Shown here: positions 25,366-27,519 of the stretch, in pieces
Layout of the letters: every line of letters starts with the position of its first letter
Numbering within the stretch: the stretch's first letter is position 1
Notes under the pieces: model-generated
Databases searched by the model: none
Told to the model about the DNA's origin: nothing
Seen by the model: only the letters and a program-made list of their open reading frames with translations
Position numbers and translations under genes: made by a program
Assembly: GCA_964016885.1 (NCBI GenBank)
Contig: OZ024740.1
Coordinates: 154,814,001-154,878,000, forward strand
DNA from: Eledone cirrhosa
Taxonomy: Eukaryota
Reading direction: 5' to 3'
DNA: 64,000 nt

Positions 25366-25539
25366 CATACACCCACAAACACTATCACAGTGCATTAATT
25401 AAACTATATAACTGTATACTGAGATATAGGGGGCGAATTTTCCCAAGGATCAGCAAAGTTAGATTGAACCGAAAATTAAGTTGTAAATTTTCCCATCTTT
25501 CTATTTATTGGTAATTATTTCATGTTTCTATATTTTCAG

Positions 25540-25713
25540 AGGATTGCCCAATTGGAGATAATAGGAATCCTTCTTTCTCTATAGCAATAGAAGTAAAAAA
25601 ATATATTCAGCCAACCAGCTGTTTAGAAGCTATACTTATCGCACCAAGGATATGTCAAACTAAATCTGTGAGGATGAAATGTTGTAAGAGCTGTCCATAT
25701 GAAATCGGTGATA
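25540..25713 (+). CDS. Host exon, six-Cys ShK-like domain (DCPIGD...C...C...CCKSC)
   Basis: ttttcag acceptor, gtcagt donor, 174 nt, open, phase 1/1; paralogous to 27074-27250. Confidence 0.72.
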
Positions 25714-25990
25714 GTCAGTATAAAACAGATTGTTTTTAATGTTGCACAACTAACATTTATCATATTGTAATGATTTAACAGAAAAAATCTAAAAATAGGT
25801 TTAATTCAAATATTTATAGTAACTTTACTAGAGGACAAATCATTGTGTAAAATTCCAGTATTAGAGTAAAGACTTTAATATTTAATGTGATGCAGTCATG
25901 GTGCTGTTCTGTACTTTTCAAGAATATCTTGCATATGTGACTTCATGCGATGCAGATGTTTAGAGTTAATGTCATATTTCTGAAATAATA

Positions 25991-26207
25991 ATGGTTTCTG
26001 ATTTAGGCACAAGGCCAACAATTTTTGAGGAAAGGGAAAGTCGATTAAATCGACTCCAGTGCGTTACTGGAATTTTATTTTATTGACACCATAAGGATGA
26101 AAGGCATAGCAAACCTCAGCAGAATTTGAACTCAGAATGTAAAAGACCGTAACTCTATGCCACTAAGCATGTTTTCTGATGCTCTACCGATCTGCCAATC
26201 CACCGCC
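25991..26207 (-). mobile_element. Degraded tRNA-derived SINE with Deu/Nin-like central domain
   Basis: Minus strand: TGGCAGATCGG A box, GAGTTCAAATTC B box, GCCTTTCATCCTT...GTCAATAAAAT. Confidence 0.7.
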
Positions 26208-27073
26208 CTTTATTTCTGAAGTAATAATAAGGGTAAGATACAATACTGGGACACTAAGGTATAGAATCATGTGATTCACTCACAAGGTCTCCTTTCATGT
26301 AAATGAATTTTCCAACGGAAATCCCTCACTGCTACTATTACTCCCCCTCATAGATTCTTATACAACAAAAATAACAACCATCGTCATCATCATTTAACGT
26401 CCACTTTCCCTACTAGCAAGTGAGGGACGAGTCTTTACAGACAGTCAGTACTAAAGCAAGACTACTGACCTTCCAGACAGGCTGGGGTGTTCACATCTCA
26501 CTTACATACAGTTCCAAGTTCTCAAAAGAGAAAAATGCTTTACTTAGCAAAGAACGAATATATATTCTAATGGTCATAAGCTTTGATCCTGTCCTAGGAG
26601 ACAAAAGTACACTATATATAGATTAAAAAAAAGCATTTAGTTACAACATATACTAGAGAGAACACTTCAGTCATGTCAAAATTGTGACAACTTCTTTATT
26701 GTAGGTGCCACAATAAAATGAACTCAATACACTATGTAGAGTGATTCATGATCAAACACAATATAGTCTCAGACTATGAAAATGCATCCAAATTATGTGG
26801 CCAAACAAAGTGGCTCAGATTGCTATTTGTTTAAAACGCAATTTTATTGGTTGATGACAATCATGGGATTTAGTACTACTTTGTAGTACTAAAAAAGATA
26901 TACCTACAGATGAGAAGCAAGTCTTTTATTTGCTAATTGTCTTGTTGAAACTGAGACTATAGGGAAGGAATTCTCCCAAGAATCACCAAAGTGAGATTGA
27001 ACCAAAAATCAAGTTGTAAACTATTTTCATCTTTCTATTTATTGCTTATTTTTTCATGTTTCTATATTTTCAG

Positions 27074-27250
27074 GTAGTTGCCTATTTGGAGATAGCCAGA
27101 TGCTTAATTTTAATTTGACAGTATCTTCCCAAAGATTTTTCAAGCCAGACAACTGTGCGGATGCATTAAAATTGGAACCAAAGTTATGTGACAGGACATC
27201 TGTGAAGTTACAATGTTGTAGGACCTGTCATCCTGAGGATTTTATTGAAG
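27074..27250 (+). CDS. Host exon, six-Cys ShK-like domain (SCLFGD...C...C...CCRTC)
   Basis: ttttcag acceptor, G|gtcagt donor, 177 nt, open, phase 1/1. Confidence 0.8.
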
Positions 27251-27519
27251 GTCAGTATAAAACAGATTGATTTTAAGGTTGCACAACTGCACAACCTAAC
27301 TCTCAACATATTATAATGGTTTAAAAGAAAATATCTAAAATTAGGTTTAATTCAAATGTTTATAGTAATTTTACTAGAGGACAGATCATTATGAAAAGTT
27401 CCAGTGTTAGAGTAAATACTTTAATAATTACTGTTATGCAGTCATAGTGCAGACTGTGTAAAGTGATTGATAATCAAATACAATAGAGGGTAGCAAAGAT
27501 TCTTCAGTCTGGTTCAATA

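Follow-up and report, generated by a model that had tools for sequence, protein, structure and literature searches.

The two cysteine-rich exons described here are best explained as a tandem duplicate of a PLAC-like module exon within an intact M12B metalloprotease gene of Eledone cirrhosa, the product of which is predicted to carry a cell-surface tether, and the mature part of which has most likely been under positive selection; we hold this sequence-based reading with good, though not complete, confidence. The exons lie in a stretch of 64,000 nucleotides, hereafter the window (C1:154814001-154878000, where C1 is the contig that holds it). Positions given without a contig are numbered from the first letter of the window. 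The host is denoted gene A and its paralogue gene B; their relevant features are:

C1:154669319-154768882, upstream of the window: exons 1-14 of gene A, from exon reconstruction
25418..25539, plus strand: upstream flank of exon A, unique intron and acceptor, duplicated with the exon; 87.7% identical to 26950-27073
25540..25713, plus strand: exon A (exon 15 of gene A), PLAC-like six-Cys module A, phase 1/1, 174 nt, AG..GTCAGT
25725..25950, strand not applicable: high-copy dispersed repeat within the intron that follows exon A, ends approximate
26950..27073, plus strand: matching upstream flank of exon B, where the second duplicated unit begins; unit offset approximately 1532 nt
27074..27250, plus strand: exon B (exon 16 of gene A), PLAC-like six-Cys module B, phase 1/1, 177 nt, AG..GTCAGT
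27290..27450, strand not applicable: copy of the repeat in exon A's intron, after exon B, ends approximate
50595..50725, plus strand: terminal coding exon 17 of gene A, entered in phase 1 and ending in TGA; short Thr/Pro/Gly linker, then a hydrophobic stretch
C1:146994258-146994419, minus strand: third module, C (gene B), with the same flanks and the same repeat as A and B

A first-pass annotation of this DNA had proposed exons A and B as two open exons of phase 1/1, and both their coordinates and their peptides translate as it described. Modules A and B are identical at 15 of 57 aligned residues, including all six cysteines and a GD pair, again as annotated. Gap-free identity is 101/171 (59.1%) in the exons and about 88% in the flanks, which upholds the central observation that the exons have changed faster than the introns beside them; the flank likeness, put by eye at 80-85%, was real but slightly underestimated (107/122, 87.7%, upstream; 168/191, 88.0%, downstream). 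Over an ungapped core of 53 codons 64 of 159 bases differ, compared with 38 differences in 313 flank bases (Fisher p 1e-11), and the unique upstream flank alone (15/122 differing) still gives p 1e-7. No dispersed copies of this upstream flank were found. The downstream flank, from approximately 25725-25750 onwards, consists largely of a dispersed repeat (40 scored out of 2881 first-look candidates; very high read depth), which occupies an equivalent position behind exons A and B and the paralogous exon C and was therefore inserted before the duplications. Exons A and B additionally share flank segments and a shifted donor, both of which are absent from C.

An assembly artefact was rejected, as contigs of the public runs X1 and X3 cover both exons without any difference; runs X1-X3 derive from one sample, its kind unrecorded but behaving as DNA, and may be the source of the assembly. 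Carriage of the exons by a mobile element was also rejected, there being only three copies, each within a full gene, and the repeat beginning after the donor. Several other repeats were observed in the region. A further copy of the module-intron repeat follows catalytic exon 6 of each gene at a distance of approximately 150 nt (C1:154702715-154702835 and its partner). Five tandem units of about 1.0 kb (window 12117-16962; 98.5-99.5% identical), each with a short internal inverted repeat, occupy part of the 70 kb intron before exon A, and a short palindromic MITE-like element between TA runs is found at 25139-25222 and 23101-23307 (copies elsewhere 92-97% identical). A 3.3 kb tandem duplication (99.7%) and several minus-strand retroelement-like long frames (window 30744-37783, 38063-46163 and 53282-56317) sit in the intron that separates exon B from the tail exon.

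Reconstruction of the full gene, a step recommended in the first-pass annotation, recovered an open M12B frame of 17 exons and 670 codons. Gene B (16 exons, 603 codons) is a whole-gene duplicate 7.8 Mb away with the same layout and one module. In both genes all exons are open with AG/GT ends, and the phases chain unbroken; exon 14 of gene A ends in phase 1, matching the need of the modules. Comparison of the two gene regions reveals collinear introns and paired exons; the pairing was made with an exon finder, as tblastx of the two regions gave mostly simple repeats. Other exon-finder candidates (retroelement frames and intron matches, for example 154676491-607) were dropped, since they interrupt the succession of phases and have no counterpart in the Octopus models. 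Only two close paralogues were found, and no further modules were detected in 464 kb around genes A and B; genome-wide, a search with each module returned three matches each, in a loose first look that very distant modules may escape.

The product of gene A comprises, in order, a signal peptide, a prodomain, a basic site, a catalytic domain, an ADAMTS cysteine-rich domain, the two modules and a hydrophobic tail. The signal peptide, prodomain and basic cleavage site (RKR in gene A; KKR in gene B) are encoded by exons 1-5; the signal peptide and furin site were identified by visual inspection. Scanning 464 kb for motifs placed a zinc-site exon in each gene, 104 kb upstream of exon A and 48 kb upstream of module C, both being weak matches to M12B families. 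The zinc motif is HEIAHSLNVKHD in gene A and HEIGHSLNAKHD in gene B, with a Met-turn; in the reconstructed gene the M12B HExxHxxG/NxxH(D) motif and Met-turn extend across exons 10-11 (HEIAH|SLNVKHD..FLMSP), and the earlier suggestion that the host is a metalloprotease is thereby borne out. A thrombospondin type-1 repeat and spacer are absent from the Pfam scan of the orthologue (below) and from the reconstructed exon chain, and no disintegrin domain, EGF domain or cytoplasmic tail was found in the exon chain, the orthologue Pfam scan or the tail comparison.

A tract of 242 identical bases (C1:154675905-154676146 versus 147175928-147175687) covers prodomain exon 2 and its acceptor in the two paralogues, 7.5 Mb apart and on opposite strands, amid introns that are 14% diverged; judged on sequence, this is an ectopic gene-conversion tract between genes A and B. 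At the 3′ end, a recent duplication (window approximately 27870-51900 versus C1:154878400-154896700; pieces 96-99.6% identical, offset 29-37 kb) carries a second copy of the terminal exon, with two differences in the exon plus 10 nt flanks, and without a module exon. This second copy could be usable as an alternative last exon. At position 50597, contigs of X1 and X2 show both letters.

A search with the prodomain exon yielded two relatives among 13 candidates, their clusters including O. bimaculoides XP_014781695.1; homologue searches with module B and with a catalytic exon returned nothing. The O. bimaculoides protein (606 aa, a predicted model; UniRef A0A0L8GEI1, annotated 'ADAMTS16') scores above cut-off for Reprolysin and ADAMTS_CR_2 and has no thrombospondin repeat. 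It resembles gene A in its domain order, an exon-for-exon match, a PLAC-like module and a hydrophobic end, but has one module rather than two, and is 47-57% identical by domain and 33-37% in the modules. The O. sinensis (XP_029636870.1) and O. vulgaris (CAI9722307.1) proteins are N-terminal halves only, which reach no further than exon 8 and stop short of the zinc site, and are probably split or truncated annotations of this gene; relative to O. bimaculoides, exon 8 is their most different exon (35-36/44 identical, with 90-100% in the others). A literature search for the orthologue accessions, and for octopus ADAMTS duplication with positive selection, found no paper within a scope that lay mostly outside subscription journals, and the accessible portions of PMC12607849 and PMC5519703 contain nothing on this gene.

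The modules had been labelled ShK-like in the first-pass annotation; both their cysteine pattern and a profile comparison (ShK probability 0.3%) speak against this label. Cysteine spacing is 23-25, 10, 8, 0 and 2 in modules A, B and C and in the O. bimaculoides module. The modules end CC-x2-C, whereas 10 ShK domains (ShK / ShKT, PF01549) of the genome end C-x3-C-x2-C; the modules gave no Pfam hit to this family and are absent from its 25 genome matches. True ShK-domain exon clusters occur at C1:408.52-408.55 Mb, C4:26.33 Mb and C21:20.12 Mb (8, 5 and 4 of the 25 matches). The ending C-x8-CC-x2-C is common to seven PLAC domains (PF08686) of the genome, to modules A, B and C, and to the O. bimaculoides module, and the profile comparison with PLAC, also recommended earlier, gave a probability of 90% (E 1.5e-6, 20 columns). 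The N-terminal halves differ, being C-x2-GD-x20-C-x10-C in the modules versus C-x-D-x4-6-C-x8-C in PLAC. The best Pfam score, 12.1 bits for module C, lies below the PLAC cut-off of 26.4 bits, with none for A or B, and the modules are not among nine genome PLAC matches. As the first half is not that of PLAC and the Pfam cut-off is missed, we term the modules PLAC-like rather than PLAC. A fold model of module B had a mean pLDDT of 50.6 and no match at Z >= 2 among 48161 chains; a PDB sequence search with the module profile produced one RING-type hit (E 0.22), which was rejected as chance.

Elsewhere in the genome, an intronless frame of 661 codons (C378:3024-5009) encodes M12B and ADAMTS_CR_2 domains followed by two shorter C-x2-GD..CC-x2-C modules in tandem, without a hydrophobic tail, and is perhaps a secreted, retroposed member of the family. 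Since this M12B frame also ends in two modules, the module is a recurrent tail element of this protease family.

A C-terminal hydrophobic stretch (17-residue hydropathy 2.2-2.5) is common to the products of both genes and to the O. bimaculoides protein; in gene A nine polar-ish residues lie beyond it. Such an end, with no cytoplasmic tail, suggests a GPI signal or a single membrane anchor, and argues against a freely secreted toxin. The annotation's 'secreted metalloprotease' is thus right as to the protease and doubtful as to secretion. We consider it rather unlikely that the gene encodes a venom or saliva metalloprotease secreted by the posterior salivary gland and evolving as those of snake venoms do. 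The evolutionary pattern is indeed that of venom genes, and the accessible part of PMC7656900 ties an octopod M12B, the gene not being named, to the posterior salivary gland, with a shift from that gland between species among three octopods. However, the predicted anchor is common to all three proteins, only two close paralogues were found, and the accessible part of the O. vulgaris salivary proteome supplement (PMC7693380) has a single ADAMTS-like row, which leads to another O. bimaculoides gene (XP_014778328.1), and 0 hits for XP_014781695.

The donor of exon A is weak, at 4.4 bits, compared with 5.8 for an in-frame alternative donor after 25707 and a median of 9.2 for 28 other donors. The orthologue's predicted model supports, rather than proves, the splicing of gene A. 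Both modules would be included by default, with exon A perhaps skippable. It is unlikely that A and B are mutually exclusive or cassette exons, giving one module per transcript and isoforms with different binding surfaces. Their symmetric phase and near-identical acceptors, the single module of both orthologue and paralogue, the weak exon A donor, and one 22-nt inverted pair that brackets exon B are all consistent with such an arrangement. Nonetheless, with 1360 nt between the exons and compatible frames nothing bars inclusion of both; only three short inverted pairs occur in 2451 nt, at least one of them in repeat-like sequence, with no convincing pairing; and the intronless M12B frame has two such modules in tandem.

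The neutral level was taken from introns. Within 1 kb of exons, the introns of genes A and B differ at 1579 of 11151 columns (p 0.142, K 0.158), and this divergence is even near 16 exons (K 0.159 within 200 nt and 0.158 at 200-1000 nt, over approximately 11 kb of collinear sequence). Intron blocks more than 1 kb from exons (K 0.124) were left out of the clock because they include young, independently inserted elements. Four-fold sites, in codons sharing the first two bases, differ at 13 of 91, and the A-B flanks (38/313, K 0.135) are not different from the gene-wide intron level (p 0.36). The flanks are thus ordinary neutral DNA, and the exon duplication falls at or soon after the gene duplication. 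Specially conserved flanks were rejected, the flanks lying at the gene-wide intron and four-fold level, as was exon-wide hypermutation, the four-fold sites lying at the intron level. Although the A/B flanks are the closest pair, modules A and B are the least alike (15/57), each being nearer to C (19/53 and 22/53).

An alternative is that the duplications are old and that gene conversion or constraint has kept the introns alike, so that the exons only seem fast; we consider this very unlikely. Conversion between genes A and B does occur, as the 242-base identical tract over exon 2 shows, and path-averaged module dS (0.3-0.77) is above the intron value. Yet divergence is even over the approximately 11 kb of intron (K 0.159 versus 0.158), four-fold sites within the exons are at the same level (13/91), which intron conversion cannot produce, and the free fit to the catalytic domain gives 0.151. 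The repeat common to A, B and C has p 0.15 among 28 dispersed copies, chosen for likeness to A and so biased low, which sets an upper bound on the time since its insertion, and in simulation the alignment conceals little divergence, with a true K of 0.3 never measured below p 0.18. Gene conversion had been anticipated in the first-pass annotation as an explanation for the intron likeness; it is real at exon 2, but is very probably not the cause of that likeness, since intron divergence is even and the four-fold sites agree.

All selection tests were pairwise and made with our own code rather than multi-species codeml. For 223 codons of the catalytic domain, on coding data only, M2a is favoured over M1a by 2dL 32.5 (p 9e-8), with a neutral distance of 0.151, fitted without intron data, and 42% of sites at omega ~9. 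When double-base changes are allowed 2dL is still 16.6 (p 2.5e-4), and double-base mutation as the sole cause was rejected on this persistence. A one-ratio codon fit to the whole gene gives omega ~1, and prodomain exons 3-4 revealed no fast-site class (p 0.23). For the modules alone the coding-only tests are not significant (one-ratio omega 1.6-2.4, p 0.13-0.33; M2a p 0.34 over 53 codons; bootstrap P 0.11), and the argument for selection on them therefore depends on the intron clock: when the neutral distance is set to the 0.135 of the flanks, omega for A versus B is 6.1 (4.5-8.6), and at 0.30 it is 2.6.

Comparison of dN with intron divergence, a check proposed earlier, places dN above the intron level, at 0.34 for the mature part and 0.7 for A versus B, with a neutral distance of 0.135-0.16 and, for the modules, an intron-calibrated dN ratio of approximately 6. 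The fast change seen in the module exons is therefore genuine, but its confinement to the modules was too narrow a view, as the catalytic domain is accelerated too. Non-synonymous change exceeds intron and synonymous change, as in venom-type acceleration, on coding data for the catalytic domain and only with the intron clock for the modules. The cysteines and zinc ligands are kept despite amino-acid change far above the neutral level. The mature protein, both enzyme part and modules, has most likely been diversified by positive selection.

When O. bimaculoides is added as a third sequence, private changes in the catalytic and cysteine-rich domains number 51 for gene A versus 21 for gene B (p 5e-4); modules A and B have 12 and 9 such changes, versus 4 and 3 for module C. 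The excess in gene A extends to the signal peptide (8 versus 1) and prodomain (13 versus 4), which some relaxation could explain. Relaxed selection, with gene A or a spare module decaying to a pseudogene, would fit the faster change of gene A in nearly every exon, signal peptide and prodomain included, and the weak exon A donor (4.4 bits versus a median of 9.2), but is highly improbable, as relaxation cannot raise dN above the neutral distance (0.34 and 0.7 versus 0.135-0.16) and frames, splice sites, the six cysteines of each module and the zinc ligands are all intact.

M12B pre-pro-proteins enter the secretory path and are cut at a basic site; the zinc domain cleaves extracellular proteins, and domains downstream of it act as exosites. 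On the preferred reading of a duplicated module exon in a tethered protease, the gene duplication would have come first, and the module exon of gene A, the faster copy, would have been doubled shortly afterwards. Activation of the furin type would occur at the basic site, and GPI or membrane anchoring would place the modules between enzyme and membrane, where they may act as substrate- or partner-binding exosites on a stalk. A doubled module would make this stalk longer and, with the disulfide frame held constant, offer another binding surface unlike the first. That selection bears on the catalytic domain and the modules alike suggests a target which is itself evolving, and which might comprise proteins of prey, a parasite or the other sex.

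Expression at a salivary or gut surface, with shedding, and expression in gametes or the spermatophore are, to the same degree, tentative proposals for the tissue concerned; an immune or skin site is less probable, as is some other tissue. A further proposal, which we regard as speculative and quite unlikely, is that an octopod lineage of GPI-anchored M12B proteins is engaged in an arms race at a gamete, spermatophore or salivary surface, with the fresh, selected exon pair being alternatively spliced to switch the binding surface. If true, this would provide the first natural handle on what PLAC-type modules bind. If the tissue is gamete or salivary gland, the gene would be a candidate for a factor under selection in the fertilisation or prey digestion of cephalopods. 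Modules A, B and C also form a swap set for probing the function of PLAC-like modules. As an invertebrate example of venom-like exon acceleration in a duplicated M12B protease the locus is a clean one, with its own built-in neutral clock and a sister gene of one module to serve as control.

Among known proteins the nearest solved chains are ADAMTS-1, -5 and -4. As in ADAMTS proteins, the M12B domain is followed by ADAMTS_CR_2 and the last domain is PLAC-like; a C-terminal PLAC domain is listed, in the accessible text of PMC4349717, for ADAMTS2, 3, 6, 7, 10, 12, 14 and 16-19. Asn at the usual Gly of the zinc motif is a feature shared with ADAMTS-1. Unlike ADAMTS proteins, the product of gene A has no thrombospondin repeats or spacer, its module has a long first loop, and it is predicted to carry a membrane anchor.

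Introns slower than protease exons are a pattern already known from snake-venom and sperm proteases. The accessible text of PMC4963849 reports paralogous snake venom metalloproteinase genes with introns 72-99% identical and proteins 63-85%, and accelerated evolution is described for snake venom metalloproteinase and PLA2 genes (PMC4963849, PMC2711939). Genes A and B resemble the snake venom metalloproteinases in being duplicated M12B genes whose introns are closer than their mature-protein exons; they differ in that only two paralogues were found rather than a large family, and in that the product is predicted to be anchored, not secreted. For the mammalian sperm-surface ADAMs, positive selection is linked to duplication and lies in the C-terminal binding domains, according to the accessible part of PMC3849967. 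The octopod proteins are likewise (predicted) cell-surface M12B proteins that combine positive selection with duplication, but have no disintegrin or EGF domain and no cytoplasmic tail, and their catalytic domain is intact and itself under selection.
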